DNA of 41,064 nucleotides from Catajapyx aquilonaris. Taxonomy: Eukaryota. Both the position numbers and the translations under genes were made by a program. The DNA lies in NCBI GenBank assembly GCA_000934665.2, contig JYFJ02003472.1:1-41064 (forward strand). Direction: 5' to 3'. This document shows positions 1,485 through 30,883 of this stretch, one piece after another (the first letter of the stretch is position 1; every line of letters begins with the position of its first letter). The notes beneath the pieces were generated by a model that did not search any database, was not told the DNA's origin, and saw nothing but the letters and a program-made list of their open reading frames with translations.

Positions 1485-2283
1485 CTGCAATATTCAATAA
1501 GACTTGTAGTGAATCTGCCCTTGTTTTCACCAGTTCTATTAACATCACTTACAACAAACAGATTCTCCGTCTTTACTCTTTTATCAGTTTTACGAGGGCC
1601 ATGTGCTCAATTGCTCATTGACTTTAAATTTTGAGAATGTAGGCTACATATTATGAATTCTACAGTTTAAGTATGACAGTGTAGCCATTTGTTATCTTTA
1701 TGTCACCTGTAATAAAAATTACAAGCTTACCATGCAGTGAAATTACCCTTCTGTTCCTGCCAGCCAGTCATGTACTGTTCATGGCTGCATATTATGACCT
1801 CTATACATGGCTTACCACTGCAAGATAAGCGCAGATATATGATGTGATAATTATGATTATTTGCTAATTGATAAATTTACAAGTTCAAAAGGTTCAAAAA
1901 TGTAAATCTTAAGTTTTCTTTCACTCTTCCTGCCTTTTATTGTAACTTTGGATCTGCATCGAGGCAGAAACATGGTTAGGTTAAACCAGATATCAAAATA
2001 ACATCATTTGAATGATCTCATTAATACAAAGGAATCGCAAGACATTTTCTGACACAAGTTGCAATGAATTGACTTGACACCAGCGTGCATTAGCGTGTGG
2101 TGTTTCATGGCAAGGCAGAAAATGTGTTATGGCACATGGCGCAACTCTAACGTTACCAAGACCAATGTGTATTATGTACATCAACAAGGTCGAGCTTCTG
2201 TTCAGAAGTCGCCCAGAACAGGCATGTATAATTGCTCATCGGGATTAAACAAAAGAAGCAAACAAACAAGACAAGGTGCAACT

Positions 2284-3533
2284 TTACAACCCTTTTCTTG
2301 TGTGGGTTTTCTTGTGATAATTTAAGTGATCACGACGAGCAAATTTCCTCTGGCATATGTCACAACAATACGGCTTCTCACCAGTGTGAGTCTTCATATG
2401 GGCAACCAAGATATATTTGTACTCAAACTTTTGGCCACAGTGGGAGCAAGAGTGCAACTCTCTTTCCCCAGTGTGAATTTGCATGTGATACTTCAGTTGC
2501 CTAGCTAGTGTGTAGGATTTTTTGCACACTTGACACGAATACTGCTTCCTGCCAGTGTGGGTCACCTTGTGATCTTCCAAAACACACCTATCACGAAACC
2601 TCTTACCACACACTTCACAAGAATAAGGCATAATACCAAGATGGACAACCTTATAATGCAATTTCAAGGCCTTGCTTGACATGTACCGTTTTTCACAGGC
2701 AGTGCAACCAAAAGGCTTTTCATCACTTCCGTGAACAAATCTATGCCTTTTGAACAACCCACTGTGTTTAGTCCTATATGAGCATCGATCACACTGATGC
2801 CATTCTTTCCCAGGCATCTCCTTTCCTTTCACTGTATCCAAAGCACCAGAAGTCCCAAGGTTCAGATCAGAGAAGGCGTCAGTGTCATTTGGACTATCTG
2901 TTTTGGTTGGCTGCATAAGCTGCTTGCACTACAAAGAGTTCAAAAGTAAATCAGGTGGTAATGAGCATTTCAAGTTTTAAGTTGATTAAAAGTTGTGATA
3001 AAGGACAATAGCATTCTGATCAATCTGCAGCCTTTTTAAAAAAGAAGATAGAAACCAACTCTACCAAAGGTTTAAGATGAGAGAGAATAAAAAGTAATGC
3101 ACAGCTTTTTAAATTTCGAAAATTCACACCACCACCACCGAACATATACACATGAGCATAATTATGTTCCCTAAGCTGAAGGTAATTTTAGCTTATGAAT
3201 GCCAGCGTACTTTTAAGATTACATAAATTAATGTTAACAGGGGAGGTGGATTGGTGCTGTGGAAACATACACGCCCACAGATGTAAGGGTGCCGAGTTCG
3301 ATCCCAAGCCCGGGCTTTCTCCCCCCTCATCTAGTGCAGAGTTGGATCGTCTCTGGTTTCGTCTCGGGTGGGATTCCTTGAGACTAACCACCCAGGAGAA
3401 CTCACAAAATGACCATATGAGACATTGGCCTGCACCTTGCACTTCCCCTCCCACTAATCCTTGCCTGTGGGCCCAGGCACTCTACATGACATTCACATTA
3501 AAGGTCCCCATGAGGGGTCAAATCACTACCCAG

Positions 3534-3598
<65 letters not shown>

Positions 3599-6500
3599 AT
3601 TAACCTTAACATTGCCAAGTGTGTGGCTTTATTGGAAGCTATCCATCATAAAGTAGGCCACTCGGCAAAAGAAAGCGAACATTTTAGGTAGACACACATG
3701 TATCAATCCCAAGTCTGGCTATGAAAAATAATTTATAGGCCACTGCGGCTGTGTAATAAATGGGAAAGAAAGTCCAGATTTTTAGGCAGAAAAAAAACCC
3801 GAAATAGGCACGAAATAACACCAAAATAAGCACTGAAATAAGCATGAAAAAACCTCAAATAGGCACAAAGATTATACTTTTACAGAAAATGAATAAGACA
3901 GCATAATTTTATCTAGGCCTAAACTCCTAAAGTATTTAATAAGTCACAAACCGGAGTGAAAACCGAATAACAACGATTAACTTACAGGCAATCACAAAAG
4001 GTGGGCAAAAGACATAAAGTGCAAGCAAGTATCGTTTGCTCCACTGGACTCCACTGGACCGCTCTCCACTTGTACAATATGGTGAGCTAAATATTTGTCT
4101 AAAATTTAGAAAAGTATTTGGCATACGCGCCACGGCAACATGATTCGCATGACTTCTGGATGATTTTGGTCCTTTCAGGAGCACACAAAATAGCCCGGAA
4201 AAAACACCCAAATATGCCTCTTAATGGGCTCAAGAAGTCCCGAAATCGGTTCACAATGTTCAAAAAATATCCCAAAAAATGCCAAATAGCGAAATGCAAA
4301 ACGCCACAATAGGCAAAATAGTTCCCAAATCCAAAAAAATTGGCCATTTTAGGCACTATAAAACCTGCATTTTCCACATCCTTCACTTATGAAATGGATA
4401 GATCTCTTCACAAAACCATCGCAACGGTTAAGGTACTATTTAGGCATTTGCCTAAAAATCCGGACTCCAGTAATAAAAATAACAGTAGGACAAGCACTGC
4501 ATTAATTAGTTTCAGTGCAGGCCTAGCTACACTGGAATAATTTTATTCCGGGGAAAGATCTGGTGTTACACCAATACTGTTTGTTGTAAGATCCATGTTA
4601 AAATTCATGTTGGGTTCATGTGACATTTAACTGGCAAAATAACCGGCTTTTCCATCAGTAATAGGTCCTTTTGGCTTAACACCAAGAGAAACATACCTTC
4701 CTTTGTCGCCTTTGGTTTTTTCCCCGACTTGAACCACGAAGAGCATCGTTAGCTGAGGGAGCGGATGGGGCATGTTCATCAATGGAGTCATTCACATCCA
4801 AAGTCAAGTCACCAATTTCAAGATTGTCTGTTTCATCAACCTGCAATAAGACAATTAGTGAATCTATTTCAGCTCTTGTTCCCGTTAGTTCTATTCACAT
4901 CAGTTGCAGCAAACACCTACCCATGTGCTCTAAAATATTGTGAAACACTTGCCTCTAATGGAATCTCCTCAAATTTGATGGGCCCAGTGTTCTCCCAGGT
5001 TGCAGAAGTGGAGGCCTGAAGTAAAATGAAAGGCAACTAGAGATTCGTAATAATATAATAATCAGACTTGTAGTACACTCCAGGTAACATTATAAACAAA
5101 GATCTCCAGATATATGGAGCATTCGACAAAATATTCACTGTGAAAAACATATCTACGTAAAATCATCTAATTCCTTCATTTATGGGGTTGTCACTAATTC
5201 AAATATGCTGACCTTTAAAAATTCCCATATTTTTTAGAATGTATGTTGCGCAAACACTGCACAATCAAGTCAGGAGGTGGATGTCAAAAGTGGCTGTCTT
5301 CATTTGTCATTGTTTTTGAGATGTCATGGCCATTAAAATCTTCAAGTAAAGGCACACTTAATCAGACAAAGACATTGGTCGAAATGATTCATCTTAGTTA
5401 TTGGTACCATAACAAGAGTGGATTCAGCTATACAAATCAAAGCTATAGAAGTGCCATTTTCTCAGAATGAGGTGGGGTCAAGATGACTTCTAATGGCTTC
5501 CACATCCTCGTGTAATCTATCAAGTAAACACACCGTACCTGGCTCCATGACTCACTCTCCGTCTCCGTCTCCTGCTTCATTGTTCCCTCTTGAAGCAAGT
5601 GCGATTCTTGATTCCCATTAGAATGAACTTCTTCAATGACTGGAAGGTCAGGTGAGGAAGCTTCCGAATCAATATTGCCAACGAGGGCAGCAATTTCGCT
5701 GATGTTTTTGGCTGTCTCTGCCTTCAAATCTCCATTCCAGTTCCCCTAAAAAAATAAGAACACATTTTCTGCAATTGACTAACAAAGTTACTGGTAGGAA
5801 CAGGTACTTCAATTTTTTTAACTATCCCAGGACCTTATTACAAAGTGTGTTTCCAATCAACTGTTCCGATAAACACTTGCCCCATAACCAGTGATTCATT
5901 ACATGACAGTCAGACCTCCTATGAACGAATGGGGCAAAAATTCTTAAAGAAGATTTCAAGTTTTTATTTTCCTGCATCGATTCATAATCAACATTTTAAA
6001 CTACAAATAATCCCACAGAGCTATTTAGAAGTATAGGTTTAAAATTACATATGTAGAGCTGACTTAAATTGTGTGGTTCTACGTGGCCGAGTCAAAACAA
6101 ATTGGGACTGATTTTTTATGTGGTAAAGAGAATTAGTTCATGACGTTTCGTGAGTGGCATCGTGTCCGGAATGCCTTGAAGTATTAGTTCACCAATTTTT
6201 TGTTTGACAATATTCCAAAATCCTGACAGTGACACCGAAAGTAAGCCTAGGTTTGTATTCGCCTCCGCTCTGCCAAGAGGTTGGCAGTGAGGACCCACAA
6301 TCAGGTTGATGTTTTTCTTCCATTTGAGGACGACACCGATGGAGGCATATGGCATGCTAAGAGAGTGCTAGAGCAGTGGTTCTCAAACTTTTTTGAACAA
6401 GTACCACTCCGTGAGGATCAGTAAACTGAAGTACCACTGTCAATGAATGGTTAATTTACACCGGTGTTGCTTTGAAGAAAATGTCACTATAATCACTGTA

Positions 6501-7226
6501 ATGACTATAATTTTGAGGTTAAAGTGATATATAACTAGTTAAAGAATAGTTTTTAAAAAGGGCGAGGCGTATAAACAGGTAAAACGACAGCAATATGCGC
6601 AGGCCACATGAGTATCGGTACCACTTGACATGGCTTGAAGTACCACCAGAGGTACGCGTACCACAGTTTGAGAACCGCTGTGCTAGAGGGCGAGGATTCG
6701 ATGAGTCCTCAAGTTGTTGACTGCAAAGGAGAAGCAGATGCGGGTGGAGGTTTGTGAAGAGCTTCAACGTCTTGTGGCCTCATCTGGTGACCAGTATCTG
6801 CTACTCACAATCTTAGCATGTCGTACACCTCCATGGCTGTTTTATTCAATCGGAAGCAAATCCTGAACCTACCCTTGTCCTCACCTCCTGCACTTCCCAG
6901 TCCTCTTCCTCCGCTTTAATTTCTGTTTCAATGTCACACGTATGCATCGACTCGCTGCCTGCATCTCCAGCGTCCACAGAAACAGACTCGGTGGGAAGGG
7001 ACTGGCCTGAAGCATCTTCTGGAATGCAAGACGCATTGATATCCGATGCGCACGCCCTTGTTCCTCCTTCATGCGTACCTTCCCTTCCACGCTTCTCCTT
7101 CTTCATCCACCCCTCCACCCTCCCGATGGCCTCCTGGCACCAGTCCACCCTGGAGACCAACCATTCCAGAAGCTTCTCGTTGCGGAGGGAGACTTCCATC
7201 AGAGATTCTAGAGTGACTGGAGCCAT
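2284..7226 (-). CDS. Gene A: coiled-coil/acidic-linker/6xC2H2 zinc-finger protein, ~446 aa
   Basis: Exons 7226-7079, 7018-6885, 5745-5539, 5015-4953 (GC donor), 4840-4697, 2928-2284 join in frame. Six C2H2 fingers with HTGEKP-like linkers. Confidence 0.85.
3240..3596 (+). mobile_element. tRNA-derived SINE with (ATT)n tail
   Basis: A-box-like TGGTGCTGTGG, B box GAGTTCGATCCC and (ATT)n tail at ~3534-3596. 16-bp TSD TAAATTAATGTTAACA / TAAATTAACCTTAACA (2 mismatches). Confidence 0.8.
3534..3596. repeat. (ATT)n microsatellite (SINE tail)
   Basis: About 21 perfect ATT units. Confidence 0.95.
3771..4466. mobile_element. Non-autonomous TIR element rich in AAATAGGCA-like repeats
   Basis: Inverted repeats AGTCCAGATTTTTAGGCAGA / TTTGCCTAAAAATCCGGACT. 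No clear TSD; superfamily unassigned. Confidence 0.55.
6082..6363. mobile_element. Truncated copy (left arm and core) of the mariner-type MITE at 8715-9124
   Basis: Near-identical to 8715-9000, including left flank (~5965-6081 vs ~8598-8714), so it was copied by segmental duplication. Confidence 0.75.
6374..6680. mobile_element. hAT (Charlie/Buster-like) MITE
   Basis: TIRs CAGTGGTTCTCAAAC / GTTTGAGAACCGCTG. Perfect 8-bp TSD TGCTAGAG (6366-6373, 6681-6688). Confidence 0.92.
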
Positions 7227-7323
7227 GGCTTTAAGTCCTAACTCGGGTTCTGTGATGTTTGGGTGGGTAAGGGAAATGAAAGGAAATCTTCAAAGGAACG
7301 TGCTTCTAACGGTTTTTTACACG

Positions 7324-7341
7324 GTCGCCATCTTGGATTGG
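7324..7341 (-). promoter_or_regulatory. CCAAT + YY1-type motif upstream of gene A
   Basis: Minus strand CCAATCCAAGATGGCGAC, conserved upstream of all 7 ATG-bearing first exons. Confidence 0.6.
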
Positions 7342-7812
7342 GTTTTAAAGGGCGTGTTCCCATCGCCGTCTGAGAAACAGTTCTGAGGGTACGTTCTGAC
7401 CGGTGTTTTCAATGGAATGTCAGGGTTGGAAATAAAGTCAACTGGATACACAGCACCATATATTAAATGCTGCAGATTATTGTTAATGTTCATTAATAGC
7501 CGAGTTCCTGGCATACGAACATTTGACACTGGCACTTTGATAGTGACATTTTTATGCAAATTGCGTCATTGGTATTGACATTTTCATGTCAGTGAGCCAA
7601 TCAGTTTAGGGTGCATACAGGTTGCAACTTTTAATTCAAATGCATATATATGTTCACAAAACAGGAATTTATTTATGTAACTTTAGGTATGAACTGCATT
7701 GATACATATTCTGACAGAAGTTGCACTGCGTAGGCTTAACACCAGCGGGCATTAACATGTGGTGTTTTATGAGAGGTAATGCAGCAAATGTCTTATCATG
7801 CATGGTGCAACT

Positions 7813-8460
7813 CTAAGACCTTGCTCCTTTGTGGGTTTTCTTGTGCTTAGTTAAGGAACCACGTTGAGCAAACTTCCTCTGGCAAATGTCACAACAATAC
7901 GGCGTCTCACCAGTGTGAATTCTCACATGCGCAACCAACCAAGATTTGCATCCGAACCCTTTGCCACAAATGGAGCAAGGGTGTAACTCTCTTTCCCCAG
8001 TGTGAAGTTTCATGTGATACCTCAAATTTTTAAGTAGAGTAAAGGACTGTTTGCACACGCGACATGAATGCTGCTGCTTGGCAGTGTGGGTCATCTTGTG
8101 CCCCTCCAAAACATACCTATCACGAAACCTCTTACGACACACTTCACAAGAATAATGCATGATAACACCATGATGGGCAACCTTATAATGCAATTTCAAG
8201 GCCTTGTTTGACATGTACCGTTTTTCACAAGCAGTGCAACCAAAAGGGTTTTCATCACTTCTGTGAACAAATCTATGCCTTTTGAACAACCCACTGTTTT
8301 TAGTCTTATATGAGCATCGATCACACTGATGCCATTTCTTTCCTGGCACCTCCTTTCCTTTCACTGTATCCAAAGCACCAGAAGTCCCAAGGTTCAGATC
8401 AGAGAAGCCATCAGTGTCATTCTCACTCACTCTTTCAGTTGGCTGCAGTAGTTGCTTGCA
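7813..8460 (-). CDS. Module B: lone 6xC2H2 terminal exon (no own promoter or intact E1-E5)
   Basis: Open 648-bp exon with intact ttgtag acceptor, phase 0. Fingers 1-3 are nearly identical to gene A. Confidence 0.7.
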   Translation of the reverse strand, partial: CKQLLQPTERVSENDTDGFSDLNLGTSGALDTVKGKEVPGKKWHQCDRCSYKTKNSGLFKRHRFVHRSDENPFGCTACEKRYMSNKALKLHYKVAHHGVIMHYSCEVCRKRFRDRYVLEGHKMTHTAKQQHSCRVCKQSFTLLKNLRYHMKLHTGERELHPCSICGKGFGCKSWLVAHVRIHTGETPYCCDICQRKFAQRGSLTKHKKTHKGARS

Positions 8461-8714
8461 CTACAAGGAATTCAAAAGTAATGCATCGGTGGGAATGAGC
8501 ATTCCAAGTTTTAAGTTGATGAACATAAAGTAGGCAACTTGGCAAACGAAAGTTAACATTTCAGCTAAACAAACAAGTATATCGATTCCAAGCGTTTTCT
8601 TTTCCTGCATCGATTCATAATCAACATTTTAAACTACAAGTAATCCCACAGAGCTATTTAGAAGTGTAGGTTTAAAATGACATAAGTAGAGCTGACTTAA
8701 ATTGTGTGGTTCTA

Positions 8715-9124
8715 CGAGCCCGAGTCAAAACAAATTGGGACTGACTTTTTATGTGGTAAAAGGAATTAGTTCATGACTTTTCGTGAGTGGCATCGTGTCC
8801 AGAATGGCTTGAAGCATTAGATCACCAATTTTTTGTTTTAAAATATTCCAAAATCCCAAGCGACAGTGACAGCGAAGTAAGCCTAGGTTTGCATTCGCCT
8901 CTGCTGTGCCAAAAGGTTGGCAGTGAGGACCCACAATCTGTGTTGAGGTTTTTCTTCCGTTTGAAGACAACACCGAAGGAGGCATATGGCATGGTAAGAG
9001 GAACAAAAATTGGTGACCTAATACTTCAAGGCATTCTAGACACGATGCCACTCACGAAAAGACATAAACTAATTCTCTTTATCACATTAAAAAATCAATC
9101 CCAATTTGTTTTGACTCACCCTCA
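8715..9124. mobile_element. mariner-type MITE with ~115-bp TIRs
   Basis: GAGTCAAAACAAATTGGGA... (8722-8836) is inverted at 9002-9117. TA flanks. Confidence 0.85.
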
Positions 9125-9806
9125 TACTTACCAGTGTGAAATCATCGTGATGCTGGTAAGCTTTACGAGGATGAATCAAAAAGAAATTCACAACACAGCC
9201 AGAGTCGATCAGCACCTGATCCGTCATGCCCTACCCTTGTCCTCACCTGCTCCGAGTGAATTAAATTTTAAGAATTCACGCATTAATATATAGTTCCACA
9301 GTTTCTGTATGAAATGTAGGCACTTGTTGTCTTAATGACACTATGTATGAGACAATAGAATGGTAAAAGTCAAAAGTGATGTAAGTGCCAAAAAAAAAAG
9401 TTCGCGCTTGAGTTACACATGACAATATTTTTGTGACATGCTTAACAAGGTCTGTGCAGGATTCAAGTCCTAGAAAAAATAACTGCGGCTTAGACAAGTC
9501 TCATACGCAAAACGAGCACATGGGGACTTGGGAGTCTTGGAGGAATGATTTCATTGCAAGGTAAGTGCAGATGTAGGGGAAGATAATTGCTATTATTTTC
9601 AAATCTAAAATTATTATGCTGAACGTATTTTAATGTCAATCAGAAGCTTTCTTTCAGTCATGGTGTTTTTCATTGTAACAATGTACCTTGACTGAGACAA
9701 CAACATGGTTAGGTTTGAGTGCATGATTTTTTATTTTTTTTGACAAATTTGGTGTTTTATGACAGGTAATGATTGTAGCAAATGTCTTTTCATGTGTGGT
9801 CCAACT

Positions 9807-10995
9807 CTACGACCTTGCCACTGTGTGGGTTGTCTTGTGACGAAACATGGTACTACGACAAGTAAACTTCCTCTGGCAAATGTCGCAACAATACGCCTTC
9901 TCACCAGTGTGAATCCTCACATGTTTAACCAAGTCAGACTTGAACTGGAACCCATTGCCACAGTGGCTACAAGAGTATAACTCTCTTATTCCAGTGTGCC
10001 ATATCATGTGATACTTCAATTTCCTAGCTAGAGTAAAGGATTTTTTGCACACTTCACATGAATGCTGCTTCCTGCCAGTGTGGGTCGCCTTGTGCTCCTC
10101 CAAATGCCCCCTCTTATTAAACTTCTTATCGCACACTTCACAAGAAAAAGGAGCAACACCAATATGTACAGCCTGATAATGCATTTGCAAGGAGCACTTT
10201 TCCATGAATCTCTTTTCACAAGCAGTGCAACCGAAAGGCTTTTCATGACTTCTGTGACCAGTCCCATGCCTTTTGAACAAAGCACTGTTTTGAGTATTAT
10301 ATGAGCATTGATCACACTGATGCCATTTCTTCCTTGGCATCTCCTTTCCTTTTACCATTTCCAAAGCCCCAGAAGTCCTACGGTTCTGATCAGAGAAGCC
10401 ATCAGTGATCTCTGTTTCAGTTGGCTGTGTTAGTTTCTTGTGCTGCAAAGAATTGAAACGTAATTAATGTGAGAATGAGCAGTTTCAGTGCATGTTCTAG
10501 CTTTACTTCATTCATTTATTCTGGTGAAAGGTGTGATGTTACATCAATGCTGTTCATGTCAATATTCAGGTCAAGGTCATGTTAAAGTTAACTGGCATAA
10601 AAACCGCTATTTCCAGCAATCAGGTTTGGCCATGTTTCGCTTAACACTAAATCAAACATACCTTTCTTTGTTGCCTTTGGGTTTTTTCCAGACTCGAGCC
10701 ACGAAGAGGATCATCAGCTGAGCGAGCAGATGGGGCATGGTCATCGCTGGAGTCATTCACACGCAAGGTCAGGTCAGCATTTTCCGTTTCATCAACCTGA
10801 AATATTAAATAGGACTTCTAGTGAATCTATTCTTGCTCCTGTTCTCATCAGTTCCATTCACATCACTTCCTGCAAACTGCTTCCTCGTCTTTACTCTTTG
10901 ACTAGGACCATGTGCTAAATTATAATGTGAAAAACACTTGCCTCTAATGGATTCGGCTCAACTTTGATGGACTCCCAGGTTGCAGAAGTGGACGC
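9807..10995 (-). CDS. Module C: promoterless E4+E5+6xC2H2 cassette
   Basis: Exons 10995-10942 (GC donor), 10796-10662 and 10442-9807, all open with intact splice sites. E4 and E5 each carry an in-frame 9-bp deletion. Confidence 0.72.
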
Positions 10996-11566
10996 CTGTG
11001 GAAAAATGACAGATCAGTCAAGATTGGTAATAATATAAACGGACATGGAGTACCGATAATATTTTACCTGTCATAAACTGGCAGGAAAGTGACAAAAGCA
11101 GTGCTTTCATTAAAACCCAAAATATAAAACCATCATGTTTGCAGACTGACCGTTTCACCACATTATGCTTCCCATCCTCTTCCTCCACTTTTATTGAAAA
11201 TCTAAAAATTTGAAGGTTAAAAATGTTGGAAAATGTTACTCGGCAGATATCTTTCACTCTCTCTCTGTGTGTGGTTTTTATTGCAACTTTGGATCTTGAC
11301 TGAGAGTGCGACATGGTTGATTAAAATACGCATCAAAATTACATTATTTGAATTAAATCTCACCAACACAATGGATAATATTGCTTAAACTCACTAGTCC
11401 TTAAAATGCCATACAACTGCTTGTCTTCCGTGGTGAATGCGTTTTACGGGTATTATCAGGAATGATCTGCAAAACGACATTTTATGACACAAGTTGCATA
11501 GAGCAGACTGAACACCAGTGGGCATTAGGACGAGCCAGCAAATGTTTATTCACACATGGCGAAACC

Positions 11567-14316
11567 CTACGACCATTCTCCTGTGTGGGTTTTCTTGTGA
11601 TAAAGTAATGTACCGCGCTGCGTAAACTTCTTCTGGCATATGTCACAACAATACGGCTTCTCACCAGTGTGAGTCCTCAAATGTTCAACCAATCGAGATT
11701 TGTGCTCAAGCTTCTTGCCACAATGAGTGCAAGGGTGTAACTCTCTTTCCCCAGTGTGAATTTTCATGTGATACTTCAGTTGCTTAGCTAGCGTATAGGA
11801 TTTTTTGCACACTTGACACGAATGCTTCTTTTTGCCAGTGTGGGTCATCTTGTGGTCCTCTAAATCCCTCTCATGACGAAACGTCCTGCCACACACTTCA
11901 CAAGAATAAGGCTTAGCACCAAGATGGTCAGCCTTATAATGCAATTGCAAGCCCTGGTTTGACATATATCGTTTTTCACAAGCTGTGCAACCAAAAGGCT
12001 TTTCATGACTTCTATGACCAAGAGTATGACTTTTGAATGATGCACTGTCTTGAGTCTTATATGAGCGCAGATCACACTGATGACAATTCTTTCCTGGCAT
12101 CTCTTTTCCTTTCACTGTATCCAAAGCACAAGACATCCCATGGTGCTCAGCAGAGAAGCCGCCAATGTCATTCGGACTCTTTCTTTCAGTTGGCTGCATT
12201 TGTTTCTTGCACTACAACGAATGTCGGATTGTAAGAAAGTACACAATACACTTTAGAGATCCAGCAAAAGTATGCAATGAAAAATTACGCGTGTGAATTT
12301 GGCTCACCACCTACGTCGGATCGAAGTGAAATCAATGGACTATGTAGTACTCTCAATGGACTCTTTGGACCTTTTTACTCTGTTCATTGGACCCTCTTAG
12401 TTTCAGAGATATTCGGTTTCAAAGCTTTCCAGCCAAATATTTCAATTGCGATTGTACAGACCCCATTTGAAGTAGCCGTCTGAAATTTATAAACCTGGCA
12501 GTAGTTGCCTTAGGATTACCAGGTCGATAATTCTCGTTAATTTTGGACTCGCATAGTTTCATAATATATTGTCCGCTTTAAAACTTCGGTAAATATTTTG
12601 AACCAGGATTCTCAGTCACTCGATTCGACAGAGCCATGGGAAATCAATGTGTCTCCTACGTATGGTATCATTAAATATTACTGGAACCCCACAACTACCA
12701 TCCAACTAGAATGGTCTGCGATGGTTGGATCCATACGTTAAAATTAACTGGCAAAGAAAACCTTCTTTTCCAGTAATTTGGATTGGCCCTGATTCTTTCA
12801 ACACTAAGACAAACATACCTTCTGTTGTCGTCTTTGGTTTTTCCGCTGTCTTGAGCCACATTCAGATTCATCAGTTGAGCGAACAAATGGGACATACTCA
12901 TAGCTGGAGTGATTCACACCCAAGGTCAGGTCACCAATTTCCCCCTTCTGCGCTTCACCAACCTGCAATATTCAAGAGGACTATTAGTAAATCTGCTCTT
13001 CTTCTCATCAGATCCATTCACATCACTTCCTGCAAACTGATTCCTGGTCTTTACTCTTTTACTTATGACCATGTGTTACATTATCATGTGAAACACTTGC
13101 CTCTAATGGAATCGCCTCAACATTGATGGCACCAGTGTTCTCCCAGGTTTCCGAAGTTGAGGTCTCGGAAAAATCACAGATCAGTAGGAATTAGTAACAA
13201 TATAATCAGACATAGAGTGCCCATACTTTAGCTGTCATACAGTGGCAGGCATCAGACAAAAGTAGTGATTTCATCAAAAACAAAAATATAATCCTCAAGT
13301 TTTCAGACTCACTGTTTTGCTTTTTGCAATTAATTGCTATACCTGGCTCAATAACTCACTCTCCGTGCCCATCTCTTGCTTCACTGTTCCCTCTTGCAGC
13401 AGGTGTAATTCTTGAGTCCCATCGGAATGAACTTCTTCATTGACTCCGAAATAGGCTGAGGAGGCTGATACACCTGCGCAGGTGAATATGGAAAAATTGC
13501 ATAGTCAGAGTGCACACAAAGTGGGTTAGTTAATTGACTCCTCAAAGAGGTCAGCTGATTGACCCTAAACTGCTCTGACCACCTCGGACAGAATATATTC
13601 CTGCTTGTTCCAAATGATACTTCCCAACTCTGAGGACAAGATTCATGCTCAGCAAAATATGAAACTTACTTGGAGGATTATTAAGTGCCCTGTAAGTGGC
13701 ACAAATTAAACCATGGTTTCATTCCCCGTGAGCCTACATACATTTTACCATGCGCGTGTGACATTAAAGAGTGTGTCATACTTGCTGAACGTCCATCTTC
13801 TGAATCAGCATTGCCGACAAGGGCAGCGATTGCACTGATGTTTTTGGCTGCCTCTGCCGCCAAGTCTCTATTCCAGCTCCACTGAAAAAATATAAGTTCA
13901 TTCAATTGTGAGGCGTAATGCTACACGCGTTTAGACTATCAGCACTTGACCCTGCATCCTGTCCTGTAATCACCTGCTGCGATTCCCAATCCTCTTCCTC
14001 CACTTTTATTTCTTTTTCAGCGTTATACGCAGGCATTGACTCGCTGACTGCGTCTCCAGTGTTGACAGAAACAGACTCGGTGGGAAGGGACTGGCCTGAA
14101 GCATCTTCTGGAATGCAAGACGCATTGTTATCCGATGCGCACCCTTGTTCCTCCTTCATGCGTACCTTCCCTTCCACGCTTCTTCTCCTTCTTCATCCAC
14201 CCCTCCACCCTCCCGATGGCCTCCTGGCACCAGTCCATTCGTGACATCAACCCTTCCAGAAGCCTCCTGTTGCCTAGAGACACTTCCATCAGAGACTCCA
14301 GGGTGACTGGAGACAT
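11567..14316 (-). CDS. Gene D: coiled-coil/C2H2 zinc-finger protein, ~455 aa (finger 1 has Cys->Arg)
   Basis: Exons 14316-14166, 14107-13974, 13881-13782, 13473-13343, 13163-13101, 12962-12819, 12211-11567 join in frame. Confidence 0.8.
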
Positions 14317-14472
14317 GGCTTGTGCACCTCTAAGAGTCCTCAGTCCGGATCAGGATGTTCGACAGATGGTCCAGATGATGCTGGACCAGAAGAGAAGGAA
14401 GGGGGGTCCAAAAGGAGGCGGAAATGGAAAGGAAATGCTTCAGAGGAACAGTCTTCTTAAAGGAAAGAGACG

Positions 14473-14489
14473 GTCGCCATCTTGGATTG
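14473..14489 (-). promoter_or_regulatory. YY1-type motif upstream of gene D
   Basis: CAATCCAAGATGGCGAC on the minus strand. Confidence 0.55.
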
Positions 14490-15041
14490 TGTGGCAGAGG
14501 GCGTGTTCCTATCGCCGTCTATAAAAAAAGTTTTTAGGGCGCCTTCGGACCGGTGCTTTTTTGCCAGTGTTGGAAACACAATCATTTGACATGAAGCACC
14601 AGTTATTAAATTAAGGAAATTCATTAATGTTCGTTTTTAATAGCTACGTAATAGCGAATGCATCAAACCGTACCCATGTGACACTGGGTGACTAGTTCAG
14701 TTGAACAGATGCTGAGCTATTAATGCATAGCAAACATTTCAATGGGAGCAATTATTCACATTGAGCTTACTACCCGATGAGGGTCAGTATCGATGGACAC
14801 ACAACAGAAATATATTTCCCAAACATACAGTTAGTCGGTACTCATTTGCACTAGAAAGCGAAGGACACTGATTCATTAATGCTACATATAATTATTTACT
14901 CATGAATTCCAGTTTCCAAAAGTATTCAGGAATGAACTGCAAAAAGACATTGGTCTGACACAAGTTGCATTGAAACAATTTAACACCAATGAGGGGGTTT
15001 TTTTAAACCAGAAAGGGCAGCAAATGTTTTATTATGCAACC

Positions 15042-17364
15042 CTACCACCTCGATCCTTTGTGAGTTACCTTGTGACGAATTAAAGAACTATGTCGAGCAA
15101 ATGTTTTCTGGCATATGCGACAACAATAGGGCTTCTCACCAGTGTGAGTCCTCATGTGTGTAATCAGGTGACATCTGCGCTCAAACCCTTTGCCACAAAT
15201 GGAGCAAGAGTGCAACTCTCTTTTTCCAGTGTGAAGTTGCATGTGATACTTCAAATGTCTAGCATGAGAAAAAGATTTTTTGCACACTTCACATGGATGC
15301 TGCTTCTTATTGTCAGTGTGGGTCAACATGTGCTGCTCCAATCCCCACTTCTCACAAAACTTCCTGCCACACACTTCACAAGGAAAATGTTTAAAACCAA
15401 GATGGACAACATTATAATGCGCTTGCAAGTTGTAGTTTGACATAAATCGCTTTCCACATGCATCACAACCGAAAGGCTTTTCATGACTTCTGTGAACTAT
15501 TTGATGCCTTTTTAAGTGTCCACTGTGTTGAGTCTTATATGAGCACAGGTCACACTGGTGCCATTTCTTCCCTGGCATCTCCTTTCTTTTCACAATTTCC
15601 AAAGCACCAGAAGTCCCCTGGTGCTCAGCAGAGAAGCCATCAGTGTCATTGGGACTATCTGGCTCAGTTGGCTGCATTTGTTTCTTGCACTGCAAAGAAA
15701 TCAAAAGTAATGCAAGTGGGAATGAGCATTCCAAGTTTTAGGTAACTGGGCCTGGCACTGATTTGTTCAACACTAAGACAAACATACCTTTCTTTGTCGT
15801 CTTTGGTTTTCCCACCGACTTGCATCACATTCAGATTCATCAGTTGAGTGTACGGATGGGACATATTCATCGCTGGAGTCAGCTGCACCCAAGGTCAGGT
15901 CACCAATTTCCTCCTTCTCCGCTTCACCAACCTGCAATATTCAAGATGACTATTAGTAAATCTGCTCTTCTTCTCATCAGTTCCATTCACATCACTTCCT
16001 GCAAACTGATTCCTGGTCTTTACTCTTTTACTTATGACCATGTGTTACATTATCATGTGAAACACTTGCCTCTAATGGAATCTCCTCAACCTTGATGGAC
16101 CCAGTGTTCTCCCAGGTTGCAGAAGTTGAGGCCTTGGAAAAATCGCAGATCAGTAGCAATTAGTAATAATATAATCAGACATACAGTACCCATACTTTAA
16201 CTGTCATACAGTGGCAGGCATCAGACAAAAGTACTGATCATAAACAAAAATATAATCATCCAGTTTTGAGACTGATCTATATAAATTGAAACAGAAAAGT
16301 TGTGGTGTTTTATTGGAATGAGATTCGGTGTAATGAGTCACTTTTGGCTTCCACCCACTCAAACAATGACCATACCTGGCTCAAAAACTCACTCTCCGTC
16401 CCCGTCTCCTGCTTCACTGTTCCCGCTTGCAGCAGGTGTAGTTCTTGAGTCCCGTTGGAATGAACTTCTTCATTGACTGAGATATGGGTTGAGGAGACCG
16501 CTCCACCTGTGTAAGTGAATACCGAAAAAGCGTGTAAAATGGCAGAATCAGATGAAAAACAAATTGGGTTAGTTAATCATCTCCCACTTGACTCCTCAAA
16601 GAGGTCAGCAGATTAACTCTGAACTGCTCTGACTACCTCTGACATAATAAATGTTCCTACTTGGTCCAAATGACACTTAACTCCGAGGACAAGATTCATG
16701 CTCAGAAAAATGCGAAACTTATTTGGAGGATTATTAAGTACCCTGTAAGTGGCACAAATTAAACCATGGTTTCATTCCCCGTGAGCCCACATACATTTGA
16801 ACATGCGCGTGAGGCATTAAAGAATGTGTCATACCTGCTGAATGTCCATCTTCTGAATCAGCATTGCCGACAAGGGCAGCGATTTCACATATGTTTTTGG
16901 CTGTCTCTGCCGCCAAGTCTCTATTCCAGCTCCCCTGAAAAAAATATAAGTTTATTCAATTGAGGTGCAGGTTACACACTTTTAGACTATCAGCACTTGA
17001 CCCTGCATCCCGTCCTGTCCTCACCTGCTGCGCTCCCCAGTCCTCTTCCTCCACTTTTATTTCCTCTTCAATCTTACACGCAGGCATTGACTCGCTGCTT
17101 GCGTCTCCAGTGTTGACAGAAACAGACTCGGTGGGAAGGGACTGGCCTGAAGCAACTTCTGGAATGCAAGACGCATTGATATCCGATGCGCACACTTGTT
17201 CATGCTTCATGCGTACCTTCCCTTCCACGCTTCTCCTTCTTCATCCACCCTTCCACCCTCCCGATGGCCTCCTGGCACCAGTCCATCCGTGACATCAACC
17301 CTTCCAGAAGCCTCCTGTTGCCTAGAGACACTTCCATCAGAGACTCCAGGGTGACTGGAGACAT
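15042..17364 (-). CDS. Gene E: coiled-coil/6xC2H2 zinc-finger protein, ~455 aa
   Basis: Exons 17364-17217, 17158-17025, 16934-16835, 16506-16376, 16132-16070, 15931-15788, 15689-15042 join in frame. Confidence 0.85.
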
Positions 17365-17521
17365 GGCTTGTGCACCTCTAAGAGTCCTCAGATGTTCGAC
17401 TGATGGTCCAGACGATGCTGGATCAGAAGCGAGTCGAAAAAAGGAAGGAAGGAGGTCCAAAAGGAGGTGGAAATGGAAAGGAAATGCTTCAGAGGAAGAG
17501 TCTTCTTAAAGGAAAGAGACG

Positions 17522-17539
17522 GTCGCCATCTTGGATTGG
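17522..17539 (-). promoter_or_regulatory. CCAAT + YY1-type motif upstream of gene E
   Basis: CCAATCCAAGATGGCGAC on the minus strand. Confidence 0.6.
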
Positions 17540-18162
17540 GTTCTCCTAGAGGGCGTGTTCTTATCGCTGTCTAAGAAACAGTTCGTAGGGTGCCTTCCGA
17601 CCGGTGCTTCCTTGTCAGTGTTGGAAACAATATCATTGGGCATGCAACTTTCATTCAACTCGTACTTTCCATAATGTGACACACCCTTTAAACCTTTATT
17701 GCAGAGTATACAATATATCAGGTGCCTCAACGTGCCCTTGGTGTGCATTTATGTGCAGCAGGCACAACTATTAAGGTCATGTCATGGCCTGGAAAAAATT
17801 TACTATGAAATATATTATAAGAATCCTCCTGGAAAAGTCAGTCGGAGAACTCATAAACGATATCGATGAACACACAACAGACATTTATATCCCAAAGATA
17901 CAGTTAGTCGGTACTCTTTGCACTAGAAATAAGTGAAGGACACTGATCCATCAATGTTACGTATAATTATTTACTCATGAATTCCAGTTTCCAAATTATT
18001 CATTTCCTGTACTGCGTCAGAGACAAGTTATCCTCTAGCAAGCTTACCCTCCAGTGAAATTACCCTTTTGTTCTTGCCACCAGTGCACACCAGTGTGTAT
18101 TAACATGTGGTGTTTTATGGCAGGTAACATATAGCAAATGTCTTGTAGCAGATGGCGCAACT

Positions 18163-20432
18163 CTACGACCCTTCACCTGTGTGGGTTTTCTTGTGATGAG
18201 TTAAGGACTCATGACGAGCAAAATTCTTCTGGCAAATGTCACAGACATATGGCTTCTCACCAGTGTGAATCCTCACATGCTTAACCAATTTAGATTTCTG
18301 CTCAAACTCTTTGCCACAATGGGTACAAGCATGTAACTCTCTTTCTCCGGTATGAAGTTGCATGTGATACTTCAAATGTCTAGGAAGAGTAAAGGATTTT
18401 TCACAGAGTCCACATGGATGCTGCTTCCTGCCAGTGTGGGTCATCTTGTGCTCCTCCAATTTCCTCTTATTGCCGAATTTTTTATCGCACATTTGACAAG
18501 GAAAAGGTGCAACAGCAAGATGGACAGCCTTATAATGCAATTGCAATGAGCGGTTTTCCATGAATCTCTTTTCACAAGCAGTACAACCAAAAGGCTTTTC
18601 GTCACTCCTGTGAACGCTTCTGTGCCTGTTGAACTGGCCGATGTCTTGAGTCTTATATGAGCATCGATTACACTGATGCCATTTCTTCCTTGGCTTCTCC
18701 TTCCCTTTTACCATTTCCGAAGCACTGGAAGTCCCTTGGTGCTTACCAGAGAAGCCGTCAGTGTCACTCGAACTCTCTCTTTCAAAGGGCCGCATTTGTT
18801 TCTTGTGCTACAAAGGATACAAAAGTAATGAAGGTGGAATGAGTATTCCAAGTTTTAACTTGATCTCAAGTTGCTGTGAACAATACATTCGCATGAGGTA
18901 ACCCAAGAGATACACCAAGTTTTAATACGATGGTGAATCAAAAAGCAATTAGGTTTGGCAATGATCTGCTTAACACTAAGACAAACATACCTTCCCTAGT
19001 TGCCTTTGGTTTGTTTTCTGACTCGAGTCATGAAGAGGATCATCAGCTGCGGGAGCATATGGGGCATGTTCATCACTGAAGTCATTTATACGCAAGGTCC
19101 GGTCACCCATTTCCGCCTCTTCTGCTTCATCAACCTGCAACAAGACTTTCAGTGCATCTGCTCCCGTTCTAATCACATCCTGCTTCCTCATCATTACTCT
19201 CTTACGAGGACCACGAGTCAAATTATAACGTGAAACACTTGCCTCGACAGGAATCTCCTCAACTTTGATGAACTCAGTGTTCTCACAGGTTGCAGAAGTA
19301 GAGGCCTGAAGAAAAATCACAGATAAATGTACACAGGTAATAATTTAATCAGACAAAGAGGTCTAGGAATCACGTCTGCAGCAATACAAATCGAAACGTT
19401 TAGCTTCCACCTCCTCCACTAAACAGGTAATGACCATACCTGGCTCCATGACTCACTCCCCCTGTCATCCGTCTTCTGCTCCAGTGTTCCTTCTTGAAGC
19501 AGATGAGATCCTCGAGTCCCATAAGAATGAACTTTCTCAATGACTGGAAGATCAGGTGACGAAGCTGCTCCACCTTCAAGTGAACACAGGAAAATGGATG
19601 AGACAGATGGCACACAAAAGGGGGTCAGTTAAGCATATCCAGTTTGACTCCAAAAGGGGGGTCCACTGATTAACCTTGAACTTCTCTGACCACCTCTACT
19701 CTGACAGTATATTCTCGCTTGATCCAAATGATACTTCTCAATTTAAGGTCAAAGTTCATGCTCAGCAAAATATGAAACTTAGTTGGCGGATTATTGAAGA
19801 CACTGCCATTGGCACATGTTAACTCATGGTTTTATTGCATGTAGGCCTACATCCCTTTTAACATGCGCGTGTGACATTAAAGAATGTGTCATACCTGCTG
19901 AATGCCCTTCTTCCGAATCAACATTGCCGACAATGGCGGCACGTTCGCTGATGTGTTTGGCTGTCTCTACTTCCAAGTCTCTATAACAGCTTCCCTTTAA
20001 AAAATATGAACACATTTGATTCAATTCCCTAATCAAGTTGCTGGCCCTTTTAATTTTTTACTCTAGAAGCACTTGATCCTTCATGCCCTCACCTCCTCCG
20101 ATGCCCAATCCTCTTCCTCCGCTTTTATGTCCTCTGCAATGTCATACTCAGGCATTGACTTGCTCCTCGCATCTCCAGTGTTGACAGAAACAAACTCGGT
20201 GGGAAGGGACTGGCCTGAAGCACCTTCTGGAATGCAAGACGCATTGTTATCCGATGCGCACCCTTGTTCCTCCTTCATGCGTACCTTCCCTTCCACGCTT
20301 CTTCTTCATCATCCACCCCTCCACCCTCCCGATGGCCTCTTGGCACCAGTCCATTCGTGACATCAATCCTTCCAGAAGCCTCCTGTTGCCTAGAGACACT
20401 TCCATCAGAGACTCCAGGGTGACTGGAGACAT
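18163..20432 (-). CDS. Gene F: coiled-coil/6xC2H2 zinc-finger protein, ~455 aa
   Basis: Exons 20432-20285, 20226-20093, 19994-19895, 19573-19440, 19305-19243, 19134-18991, 18807-18163 join in frame. Confidence 0.85.
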
Positions 20433-20615: not shown

Positions 20616-21438
20616 GTGGCAGAGGGCGTGTTCCTATCGCCGTCTGAGAAACAGTTCGCAGGGTGCGTTCTGACTGATATTTTTCAATGGAACGTCCAGT
20701 GTTGGAAATAATGCCGATTGGATATCCAGCAGGTCATTTCCGACAATTTTCACTCATGTTTATGGCTGCCTCTGCCTCCCAAATCTCCATTCCATATTAC
20801 CTGAAATATAACCGCAAATTTTATTCAATTGCCTAACAAAGTTACTGGCGCCATTAATTTTTTTTTGTCAACTCTCCCAGCCACTAATTGCCAAAATGGT
20901 GTTTTCAATCATCGTCTCAATAAAGCCAATGTCCCATGACCAGTGATTCGTCAGTCTTCACATAACACTCACATCTCCCCAGATGTAGGACATGGTAATT
21001 ATGAATAATTGCAAAATACTATAAAAATGAAAATATTGAAAATGTGCAAAAAAATGGTAGTCAGGAACATTCTTTCACTCTTTGTGCTTTTTATTGTAAC
21101 TTTGGATCTAGGCCGAGACAGCAACATGGGTCGGTATGGGTTGTAAGTAAACTATCAAAACAACATCGAATGAATCTCATTATCGCCCATGATAAACAAA
21201 AGGAATTGCTTAAACTCACAAAAATTTTAAACAATTGTACAACTGCTTCTCTTCCCTTGGTGACGAATCACTTTCTTCACGTATTTTCAAGTATGAACTG
21301 CAAGAATAGGCTACATCTTCTGACTCGATATGCACTGAGAAAGCTGTAATAACACCCGTGTGCATTAGTGCGCGGCTTTTTCAACCAGGTAGGCAGGAAA
21401 TGTTGTATCACGCATTGTGCAACCTCTACTTCCTTGCT

Positions 21439-24400
21439 TTAGCGATGGGTTTTCTTGTGATAAGAGAAGGAACTGCGATGAGAAAACTCCCTCTGGCATA
21501 TGTCACAGCAATACGGTGTCTCACCAGTGTGAATTCTCATATGAGCGACCAACGCAGATTTGCTCTTGAACCCTTTGCCGCAAATGGAGCAAGGGTGTAG
21601 CTCTCTTTCCCCAGTGTGAAGTTTCATGTGATACCTCAATTGCGTGGGTAGAGTAAAAGATCTTTGGCACACCTCACATGAATGTTGCATCTTGCCAGTG
21701 TGGATCATCTTGTGGTCCTCAAATCTACTCCTCGAACTAAACTTCATATCACACACGTCACAAGAAAAAGGAGCTACAGCAAGATGAACAGCCTTATAAT
21801 GCAATTTCATGGTGTAGTTTCTGGTAAATTGCTTATCACAAGCAGTGCAACAGTAACCCTTTCCACACCTTCCTTCAACAGTTTTATGCCTTTTGAAGTT
21901 ACTACTGTTTTGAGTCTTGTACGAGCATTGATCACAACGATGCCACTTCTTTCCAGGCAGCTCCTTTCCTTTCACCATTTCCAAAGCCCCAGACGTCCCA
22001 TGGTTCTGATCAGAGAAGCCATCAGTGTCCTTCCGACTCTCTCTTTCGGTTGGCTGCATAAGCTGCTTGCACTACAAAGAATTCAAAAGTAATGCACTTT
22101 TATATTGATTTCAAGTTGTCGTGATTAAGGACATTAGCATGAGATATCTCAGGCCTTTCATATTAACCAAGACAGAAACCAATACTACCGAAGTTTAAAT
22201 GAGGGAGGAATGAAAAAGACTGTGATTCAGGTTGGGGCCTGAGCAGGCAGATGGGGTTGTGAACTGGAGACTGCCCCATGGCTATTGCGGTGCCCCATTG
22301 TGCGCCAAATAGGTACCCCAGGCGGCAGGCCTAGAAAAGAGCGAGCGAAGCGAGTGGTTTTCTAGGCCTGCGCCCTAGGAACATGCGAGCAGAGTGAGGG
22401 TTTTCCGAGTATTCTGCATTAATTTGTCTCAGTGCGTGGGGCATGGTCTAGCAACACTGCGATTCATTTATTCTGGTGAAAGGTATCATGTGACACCAGT
22501 ACTGTTCATGCTAAGAATCATGCTAAGTTCATGTTAAAGATAACTGGCATAAAAACTGCTTTTTCCAGCATACAGGTTTTGCCCCTGTTTCGCTTAGCAC
22601 CAAGAGAAACATACCTTCCTTTGTGGCCTTTGGTTTTTCCCCGACTTGACCCACGAAGAGGATCATCGGCTGATAGAGCAGATGGAGCATGTTCATCGCT
22701 GGAGTCATTCACACGCAAGGTCAGGTCAGCTATTTCCTCCTCTTCTGCTTCATCAACCTGCAATATTCAATACGACTAATCAATAAATTCCTGCTCTTGT
22801 TCCACCAGTTCCACTCAAATCACTTATAGCAAACTGCTTTCCCATCTTTACTATATTACGATGGTCATGTGCAGAAGTATAATGTGAAACACTTGCCTCT
22901 AATAGATTCTCCTCAACTTTGATGGACTCGGTGCTCTCCAAGGTTGCAGAGTCCTGCGAGGAAAAATATGCTTGACTCTGTTTACAGCTGCAGTTTTCTC
23001 ATGGAAACAACGTGCACCATTAGCAAAAAAAATACGATAACAATCGGTAACAATGTGAGCCCTTGGCGACGACCTAAACAAACTCCCGTATGCATGGACA
23101 GCCTATGGGGATTCGACATGTCTACACTTCTGCGACCGTACGGCCGCAAAGATGGAGCAATGGACACAAAAATTACACCAAAAAATAGGACATGATCTGG
23201 CGCAGGGCACCTTCGTCGTCATTTTACCATTTTCGGCCTAGAAGTGACCTTTTCATCGAGTTGAAGCAAAAGGAAAATGGCGTTCCCAAAATGCCCATTT
23301 GAATAACATGGCGGCAGGAACGCGACAAAGTCGGGAACGCTTCTGCGCCCGTACATTCACAATTTCAATGCGATCACATCGAGTATGGTACCATAGTAAA
23401 GGCCAAACCTTTCCACAGGGCACCTTCTTTGTTATTTTTCCGATTAACAGTGCGTTTCGCCACAAAAAATAAAATTCCCTCAAAAATGCGCCTACCGTAT
23501 TTTTACTGATGCACCCCCGTAACTCTCAGGCATGTCATATATGATTTCAGCAGGTCATTGTAGCTGACAATTATAAGAGAGTTCTGGGGAATATTATCAA
23601 CAATGGGAACAATGGGAAAAGGCGACCCACCATTTTTGGACAATCCATCTGTGTGATAAACGCCGCCAAATACGCAGGGGTCCATATTTAAAAATGGACA
23701 GCAGGTCCCGTCGACTCTTAACTTGAAACGTGGGGTCCTTTTCGGACCCCAGGGTATGCTTATGTCACCACCCCTCCGCTAGCTTTTGTCAAAATGAAAA
23801 ATCGCACACCTGTATTCCTCAAATATACTCTTTCATACCTGAAAAAAAATTATGTGCCACAAAATTTTTGTTTATAATAGAGGGATTGTCATTAAGACGC
23901 TCACGAATCATCTTAGGGTCCCAAAAGGATCCCACGTTTCAAGTTAAGCACGTCTAAAGGAGATTTCATGCTGAGGGTTGAGAATGTATTCGTGGGACAT
24001 ATTATTGGTAAGTAGCATTTTTTAAAAAATTCGACAAAATATCCAACGGGAGGAAAAAAACCTATTCCAGTCCTTCATTTACATCATGGCTTGTTTCTAA
24101 TTGGAAATATGTAGCCCCTTCATACGTTTTTTTTGCACTGTTGAAATGTCGAAATGTGCAATCCAGTAATGACCATACCTGGCTCCATGACTCACTCTCA
24201 GTGCCCATCTCCTGCTCCAGTGTTCCCTCTTGGGGCAGGTGCGATCCTGGAATCCTGCAAGAATAAACTTCTCCAATGACTGGAAGATCAACTGAGGAAG
24301 ATGGCCCATCTGCAAGGGAACACGTGCAATTAGCTTAGTCAGATGGCGCACAAAGGGAGTCAGTTAAGCATATCTCGTAGTTTGACTTCCAAATAAAGTC

Positions 24401-28282: not shown

Positions 28283-28504
28283 CTGGAATGCAAGAGGCCC
28301 ATTCAGCGAGCTACTCGCAGTCAGTTGTGGTTGCAACTTTTATTCAAATGTTTGCCAGACACACTCACTGTGAGTCATGTGAGCCTTGATTTGCATAATA
28401 GACAATTTAAGTACCTGAAACTGCCCTACATTTATGCGTAAGCTACTATTCACTATTTGGATCTTGTCTGAGGCAGCATATGTTTTATCAGACATGGCAC
28501 AACT

Positions 28505-30732: not shown

Positions 30733-30883
30733 GGCTTGTGCACCTCTGGAGTCCTCAGATGTTCGACTGATGGTCCAGATGATGCTGGATCAGAAGGAGA
30801 TGGACTAGGGAAGGAAGGGGGTCCAAAGGAGGGGGAAATGGAAGGAAATCCTCAAAACAACGTGCTCTTAACTGCAAAAGACA

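Follow-up and report, generated by a model that had tools for sequence, protein, structure and literature searches.

A putative alternative 3'-terminal zinc-finger cassette unit with a non-BTB N-terminus in a tandem gene array of Catajapyx aquilonaris

Introduction

The combination of one effector or oligomerisation module with many alternative zinc-finger ends is known mainly from insect BTB genes. In lola, a shared set of 5' exons is combined with one or another of several 3' exon sets, each of which encodes C2H2 fingers. The present study concerns a stretch of 41,064 nucleotides (nt) from Catajapyx aquilonaris (assembly GCA_000934665.2, contig JYFJ02003472.1, positions 1 to 41,064), referred to here as the window. 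Stop-to-stop open reading frames (ORFs) and BLAST of one unit, gene D, against the window revealed a minus-strand tandem array of paralogous zinc-finger genes. Gene D and the headless modules downstream of it, designated C and B, probably belong to a single transcription unit whose 3'-terminal zinc-finger cassettes are alternatives; an RNA contig joins exon 5 of D to exon 4 of module C, and the arrangement suggests a young lola-like unit with an orphan, non-BTB N-terminus.

One report attributes up to twenty protein isoforms to lola (10.1101/132027), and two others describe the isoforms of mod(mdg4) as products of trans-splicing alone, the 3' exons involved being under promoters of their own (PMC6237743, PMC12692577). 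Constant 5' exons with alternative 3' ends are the logic of both loci (sources consulted: PMC13490949, PMC6237743, PMC12692577, 10.1101/132027). Gene D is like lola in having constant 5' exons and alternative zinc-finger 3' ends, by which one gene would yield isoforms with differing DNA binding. It differs in its N-terminus, an orphan 50 amino acid (aa) helix with no BTB domain; in possessing two demonstrated cassettes and one possible cassette of six fingers each, as against the one pair of lola; in lying inside an array of otherwise autonomous paralogues; and in that cassette C comes with two linker exons of its own. With mod(mdg4) it shares the logic of constant 5' exons followed by alternative 3' ends. 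Unlike in that locus, the cassettes are situated downstream on the same strand, so that a cis joint explains the RNA contig, the C-terminal domains are of another kind, and BTB is again lacking. The traits found in common with the lola/mod(mdg4) type are three open six-finger exons behind one promoter core and one set of exons 1 to 3 (E1–E3). Membership in the BTB-zinc-finger multi-cassette family was rejected, there being no BTB and no Pfam domain in the N-terminal exons, and no relatives of the N-terminus in two large protein searches. The literature searched listed the insect loci and yielded no account of a multi-cassette zinc-finger unit without BTB, which is not proof of absence.

The KRAB-ZNF, ZAD-ZNF and fish FiNZ-ZNF genes constitute lineage-specific tandem C2H2 families with a conserved N-terminal module. 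The array resembles them in its tandem arrangement, its conserved short N-terminal module, its contact residues that change fast within a conserved finger framework and its signs of gene conversion; it differs from them in that its N-terminal module matches no Pfam family. Assignment to a KRAB, SCAN or ZAD family was likewise rejected, since the named domain was not detected and the N-terminal exons gave no Pfam match. We know of no description of one promoter shared by several finger cassettes as a trait of the KRAB, ZAD or FiNZ families. In conjoined genes, transcription continues past the poly(A) site of the first gene and a donor of that gene is paired with an acceptor inside its downstream neighbour, the upstream terminal exon being skipped. 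The joining of a D donor to an internal C acceptor, with the terminal exon of D skipped, has the same form. This class was also set aside because module C is not an autonomous gene; it is without promoter core, E1–E3 and the family start codon context, and retains of its 5' part only a 56-nt relic of E2. For E4 and E5 of module C, no route to translation is apparent other than splicing from D.

Organization of the array

The units were named, from low to high coordinate, A, B, C, D, U7, U6, U5, U4, U3, U2 and U1. A full unit comprises E1, E2, E3a, E3b, E4, E5 and a zinc-finger exon, and all features described below lie on the minus strand unless stated otherwise. The window contains 11 terminal exons, each of approximately 630–650 nt and each encoding six C2H2 fingers. 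The promoter core AATCCAAGATGGCGAC, an invariant sequence that we take to be similar to the YY1 motif AAGATGGCGGC, is present in seven exact copies (A, D, U7, U6, U3, U2 and U1) versus 0.25 expected by chance. Four of the 11 finger exons, those of B, C, U4 and U5, are without this family promoter core. The upstream promoter and 5' untranslated region (UTR) block aligns in 7 of the 8 upstream regions examined, U5 being the exception.

Between positions 7813 and 14490 there is a single promoter core (14473–14488), that of gene D, and BLAST of gene D against the window located homology to E1–E3 in this span only in D itself. The original prediction, made from the letters alone, that D is the only unit here with a promoter and intact E1–E3 is thus borne out. 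It had also noted three open finger exons with AG acceptors, and these were recovered at 12211–11567 (cassette D), 10442–9807 (cassette C) and 8460–7813 (cassette B), each preceded by AG and ending in a single terminal stop.

Splicing of gene D to module C

A search for sequencing runs listed none recorded as RNA for positions 7700–14600 and returned a single public run of unrecorded kind (X1), containing 27% of the sampled words, contigs of which were mapped to positions 2000–20000. X1 was treated as cDNA because its joints sit at predicted exon borders. All 11 joints coincide with borders read from the sequence. Seven have CT..AC ends, which are GT-AG on the minus strand, and three, at the E4 donors of D, C and U6, fit GC-AG after a one-base shift. 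The remaining joint, in the E1/E2 region of U7 (17160->17237), is imperfectly aligned and is consistent with the splicing out of an intron homologous to the 58-nt intron of D.

A contig of 840 nt (word depth 6.72) carries the joint between the donor of D E5 (12818/12819) and the acceptor of C E4 (10994/10995). It is made up of the pieces 13820–13780, 13471–13100, 12961–12818, 10994–10941, 10795–10662 and 10442–10348, which represent, respectively, 41 nt of D E3a, 372 nt of D E3b with retained intron 3 and D E4, 144 nt of D E5, 54 nt of C E4, 134 nt of C E5 and 95 nt of the C finger exon. These lengths (41+372+144+54+134+95) account for all 840 nt, and the two pieces shown contain no other letters. 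Five of the 11 joints fall in this contig, including those from C E4 to C E5 and from C E5 to the C finger exon. The joint from D E5 to C E4 skips 1823 nt, removing the entire finger exon of D together with its 3' end. Since such a joint requires spanning reads, molecules in which D E5 is spliced to C E4 exist. D E5 is also the only upstream partner of C E4 among the X1 joints listed.

The cassette of D is itself represented in RNA by a contig covering part of its finger exon and the 3' flank (11269–11671; depth 8.87), with a depth of 0.19 in the intron bin 12217–12817. The joint from D E5 to the D finger exon (12819->12211) is not among the 11 X1 joints listed, contigs indicating presence and not absence. 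Over the C finger exon the contigs have word depths of 15.5 and 7.8, values which cannot rank the parts. Each of the three cassettes has the AATAAA signal expected of a terminal exon, at 11282 (D), 9735 (C) and 7673 (B). RNA contigs end at 11269 and 9713, 13 nt and 22 nt past the signals of D and C respectively; for B there is the signal only. This fits two separate 3' ends, for the D and C cassettes, behind one promoter core, contig ends being weak evidence. Bins 6207–9211, which include cassette B and the 5' part of gene A, are without X1 cover and are uninformative on expression.

The alternative terminal-exon array that had been proposed for this locus is partly supported, by one in-frame joint, D E5 to C E4, in one RNA contig; use of cassette B and a function of the isoforms are predictions. 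The particular joints that had been forecast (13343->10995, 12819->10442, 12819->8460 and 10662->8460) do not appear among the 11 listed, in contigs that report presence only and of which the listing gave 8 of 57 pieces.

Structure of gene D and of the headless modules

The promoter and 5' UTR block of gene D (14420..14560) is conserved among full paralogues, and an RNA contig reaches approximately 14480–14490, i.e. the position of the core. E1 (14166..14316) begins with an ATG at 14316 and encodes the 50-aa N-terminal segment. It is followed, after the 58-nt intron, by E2 (13974..14107), which was placed from splice sites and frame. E3a (13782..13881) ends in phase 1, as indicated by frame and by the RNA joint 13471->13780 (cut +2). 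E3b (13343..13473), delimited by the RNA contig, splice sites and frame, has a phase 0 donor at 13343. The intron between them (13474–13781; 308 nt, GT-AG) is spliced out of RNA in D and U7. An intron splitting E3 is present in D, U7 and U6, with only approximately 20 nt at this place in U1, U2, U3 and A; judged from the sequences it would be either a gained intron or insertion in the one subgroup or a loss in the other.

E4 of gene D (13101..13163; 63 nt) has a GC donor, the RNA joint 12961->13100 being GC-AG after the allowed one-base shift. E5 (12819..12962; 144 nt) ends in the branch donor toward the alternative cassettes (AAG followed by gtatgt), which is joined to 10994/10995 in RNA. Cassette D (11567..12211; 645 nt) was identified by Pfam, by ligand count and by the RNA contig described above, and its 3' UTR occupies 11269..11566. 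Its acceptor lacks the family-conserved intron tail and has the poorest pyrimidine tract among the 11 copies, the longest pyrimidine run being 3 versus 4–7 elsewhere and the T count 7 versus 9–12. The intron in front of it measures 607 nt, compared with 98–219 nt for three RNA-confirmed introns.

By BLAST of gene D against the window, module C retains E4, E5 and the finger exon, matching D 13317–12737 (E4 plus E5) and the D finger exon. Its 5' truncation is marked by a 56-nt relic (11140..11195) of the 3' end of E2 and the start of intron 2, matched by 7 of 7 full units with 78–93% identity. C E4 (10942..10995) has a GC donor, and its acceptor (ccacag before G) is the one used by the donor of D E5; it is bounded by the RNA joints 10994->12818 and 10795->10941. 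C E5 (10662..10796) is bounded by the latter and by 10442->10662. The two exons, of 54 and 135 nt, are each exactly 9 nt shorter than their counterparts in D (63 and 144 nt), as had been noticed in the original prediction. Cassette C (9807..10442; 636 nt) is covered by RNA contigs at 9713–10068 and 10118–10326, with a joint into 10442, and its 3' UTR (9713..9806) ends with the RNA contig at 9713.

The match of module B to gene D comprises the finger exon plus approximately 10–30 nt of flank. Upstream of it lies a relic of approximately 50 nt (9203..9255) of the E2 donor and the start of intron 2, with matches to U3, A and U6 (E-values 5e-05 to 0.003), followed by a foldback (MITE-like) repeat without assigned strand (8713..9126), the 88-nt arms of which are 89% complementary. 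A second copy of this repeat, 91% identical, is found in an intron of gene A (6363–5952). The 3' end of intron 5 before cassette B (8461..8527) carries the family motif TACTTTTGAATTCCTTGTAG and shows 82–88% identity to five paralogues. This intron tail and acceptor have been kept (82–88% over approximately 60 nt) while the remainder of the B intron is unrecognisable. Cassette B (7813..8460; 648 nt) was defined by Pfam and by ligand and invariant-column counts, and a signal search of its 3' flank (7635..7812) located, besides AATAAA, an ATTAAA at 7635.

It had been supposed that all junctions from E2/E3 onward are in phase 0, such that any donor could join any later cassette in frame. This applies to the donors of E3b, E4 and E5 and to the acceptors of C E4, C E5 and all three finger exons; in the exon model the E1/E2 and E3a/E3b junctions are in phase 1. 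All six spliced isoforms assembled by script are open to one terminal stop. The D-to-C isoform, assembled from exons, is open for 515 codons and contains the E4–E5 linker twice; D's own isoform has 455 codons. Joins from D E5 to cassette B and from C E5 to cassette B were both computed to be in frame.

Constraint on the finger exons

The finger exons of D, C and B match zf-H2C2_2 (PF13465) in Pfam with E-values of 5.6e-26, 6.2e-22 and 4.5e-23, and all three exceed the cut-off of PF00096. Zinc ligands are complete (24/24) in B and C. D, in which finger 1 is without one Cys ligand, has 23 of 24, as do U4 and U5, and U2 has lost part of two fingers. Indels among the finger exons are exclusively multiples of 3. 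With U2 excluded from the set of other copies on account of its deletion, private changes at columns invariant in those copies number 0 of 52 for B and 4 of 56 for C; the other nine-copy comparisons gave 1–5.

Neutral decay was simulated by random substitutions over the maximum-likelihood (ML) terminal branches of B (0.086 substitutions per site) and C (0.140) in 5000 runs. For B, a fraction of 0.0008 of the runs ended with the frame open and every ligand in place, and for C none of the 5000 did so; with the branches halved, these fractions became 0.021 and 0.0034. Across the family the number of distinct residues per column is 4.25 at DNA-contact positions versus 2.35 elsewhere in the fingers. 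Differences in B and C have the same profile as in full genes, with 0.68–0.70 at contact positions and 0.29–0.31 elsewhere in the fingers. Whole-exon pairwise dN/dS (0.31–0.90) was discarded as a discriminator, headless and full copies not being separated by it, and branch estimates, ligand counts and invariant-column counts were used in its place. Taken with the branch estimates given below, the evidence for constraint on the headless cassettes B and C is mixed.

The N-terminal segment

The 50-aa segment specified by E1 is present in eight copies in the family, which are 86–100% identical to that of D. AlphaFold2 predicts it to be a single long helix (residues 6–49, pLDDT 93.8). In five of five N-terminal pieces no Pfam family was detected at E<=0.1, and hence no BTB, KRAB, SCAN or ZAD; the original prediction of a non-BTB N-terminus was therefore correct. 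HMMER over 1.84 billion representative proteins gave no matches for the N-terminus. A search with a 134-aa N-terminal query from U1 for homologous proteins of longer lengths yielded no relatives, an atlas search with the E1 segment of D had a best score of 0.85, under the useful range, and Rfam gave no matches. The protein search with the C finger exon returned only three generic C2H2 matches of 33–42% identity. The shared N-terminal helix might be an oligomerisation or effector-recruiting module.

Proposed mechanism and alternative explanations

Behind gene D sit 5'-truncated copies of the family unit, which are without promoter and E1–E3 but in which poly(A) signals, splice acceptors and six-finger exons with open frames have been kept. 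Transcription would start at the D promoter, and the donor of D E5 (12819) would then face two routes. By one, D E5 is joined to the D finger exon, the RNA ends near 11269 and a protein of 455 aa is predicted. By the other, the D finger exon is skipped, D E5 is joined to C E4 (10995) and thence to C E5 and the C finger exon, the RNA ends near 9713 and the predicted protein has 515 aa. The weak acceptor of D would tune the choice, C E4 offering the next good acceptor when the D finger exon is skipped, and cassette B is a probable third choice that could be reached from D E5 or C E5. Both predicted proteins would contain the common orphan N-terminal helix and an acidic linker, and their finger arrays would differ mostly at DNA-contact positions. 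Gene D would in this way have two (D and C), perhaps three (B), alternative DNA-binding ends, and we infer that the isoform proteins are made and are of consequence.

The locus looks like an early stage of such a system: ordinary partial tandem duplication in a fast-evolving zinc-finger family has produced cassettes without promoters, and the gene upstream is joined in frame to at least one of them. Should the isoforms work, factors of differing DNA specificity are under the control of one promoter, and the gene count of the window is 7 by promoters versus 11 by finger exons. The locus also bears on annotation, since B and C would be taken for pseudogenes or fragments by gene-finding programs.

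Several points weigh against D and the modules being one such unit. The D-to-C junction comes from one contig in one run of unrecorded kind, a k-mer contig is no proof of a single molecule from E3a to the C finger exon, and the promoter of D is tied to the C route only back to E3a. The 840-nt contig retains D intron 3 (13342–13164), which introduces a stop at codon 174. This intron is retained in the only contig covering 13164–13342, and a joint from E3b to E4 is not among the X1 joints listed for D, U7 or U6. Its retention may be regulated or may simply reflect pre-mRNA, and the molecules sampled with it may be immature or unproductive. Identity between D and C is similar across introns and exons (76.6% over 595 nt), and the doubled E4–E5 linker looks more accidental than designed. 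The three-point terminal-branch dN/dS is 0.75–1.17 for C, 0.77 for B and 0.81 for U4, compared with 0.28–0.58 for A, D, U7, U6 and U5; U3 has 0.88. The high values of the headless cassettes fit relaxed constraint or diversification equally well. Near-neutral ratios had been named beforehand as a mark of pseudogenic modules: the terminal branches of C and B do approach them, and 24/24 ligands with no frameshift or stop speak for the opposite. Past constraint on B and C may also date from the whole-gene stage, before the 5' truncation. Finally, cassette B is a mosaic, nt 45–350 of the codon alignment being 92–96% identical to A and the 3' part nearest to U5; the open frames could therefore be owed to gene conversion from working paralogues, which weakens the simulation.

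Many of the same observations bear on an explanation that we consider unlikely, namely that B and C are decaying partial duplicates, that the joining of D E5 to C E4 is functionless read-through splicing past the D poly(A) site into the intact acceptor of a dead copy, and that the open frames are young or have been kept by conversion. A terminal-branch dN/dS near 1 for C and of 0.77 for B, the stop-bearing intron in the sole contig with the D-to-C joint, the duplicated linker, the mosaic similarity of B to A and U5 and the like identity of C and D in exons and introns all favour it, and the E2 relics and the repeat insertion indicate that the modules have undergone deletions and insertions. 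The finger exon of C, however, has a terminal branch of 0.14 and no stretch more than 92% identical to any other copy in the window, yet is free of stops and frameshifts and has all 24 ligands, a combination absent from 5000 simulated runs and reached at a frequency of 0.0034 at half the branch length. B and C do no worse than full genes in the count of private violations, and B has retained its conserved acceptor motif amid an otherwise unrecognisable intron. The depth of the D-to-C contig (6.72) is of the same order as that of the D cassette contig (8.87), though depth cannot rank them. A very improbable alternative is that C and/or B are independent units with non-family start sites of their own, which either specify finger-only proteins from an internal ATG (e.g. 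a Met before finger 1) or are trans-joined to D as in mod(mdg4), the cis joint then being a minor by-product. The greater depths over the C finger exon (15.5 and 7.8, against 6.72 for the D-to-C contig) are a hint in this direction only, given that depth cannot rank parts; U5 is an example of a family member behind unrelated upstream sequence; and the variable 3' exons of mod(mdg4) possess their own promoters, according to two reports (PMC6237743, PMC12692577). On the other side, no family promoter core occurs near C or B, the region upstream of B holds only the 3' end of C, the E2 relic and the repeat, and D E5 is the only upstream partner seen for C E4. In addition, the 9-nt deletions have left E4 and E5 of C in frame, a property of consequence only when these exons are translated from upstream.

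A single unit with alternative cassettes is thus the reading that we favour for gene D. Its extension to the whole array is advanced only tentatively, and with more doubt than confidence: the tandem family might be turning into lola-type loci, with selection maintaining the promoterless B, C, U4 and perhaps U5 as further DNA-binding ends for the full gene that precedes them (D->C->B and U3->U4->U5), and with the choice among ends tuned by a degraded resident acceptor and a conserved GC donor. If true, this would be a route by which multi-cassette transcription-factor genes arise, with an N-terminal helix lacking known relatives.

Other features of the window

The donor of E4 has an unusual form in most copies compared. 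In 7 of 8 pattern-matched copies on the minus strand the intron starts with GC (gcaagt), at 13100, 10941, 19242, 16069, 22896, 32504 and 4952, and U3 alone has GT. GC-AG splicing at these donors is present in RNA contigs for D, C and U6. A conserved weak GC donor in an alternatively spliced family may have a regulatory role.

U3 is a full gene with its promoter core at 30884, and U4 and then U5 lie behind it (21391–30969). U4 (28298–25853) possesses complete E2, E4, E5 and finger exons and is without promoter, E1 and E3. E1 of U5 does not begin until an internal ATG (25320), and the sequence upstream of it is unrelated. U4 and U5 are identical over the final 70 nt of intron 5. From its layout, U3-U4-U5 (21391–30969) is a possible second multi-cassette unit.

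The finger exon of U2 (31639–32175) has an in-frame deletion of approximately 39 codons, which removes the last part of finger 2 along with the first part of finger 3 and leaves the exon open. At family-invariant columns this copy departs privately 15 times, and 9 of these cases are deleted positions. Upstream of the U1 promoter, an isolated fragment resembling E1/E2 (38161–38397) is 78% identical to D 14199–13970, with no other unit exons adjoining it in the window. Simple repeats were noted at the start of the window, where a 135-bp tandem repeat is present in 2.7 copies (1–358), and in an intron of gene A, which contains an (ATT)21 microsatellite (3534–3597).

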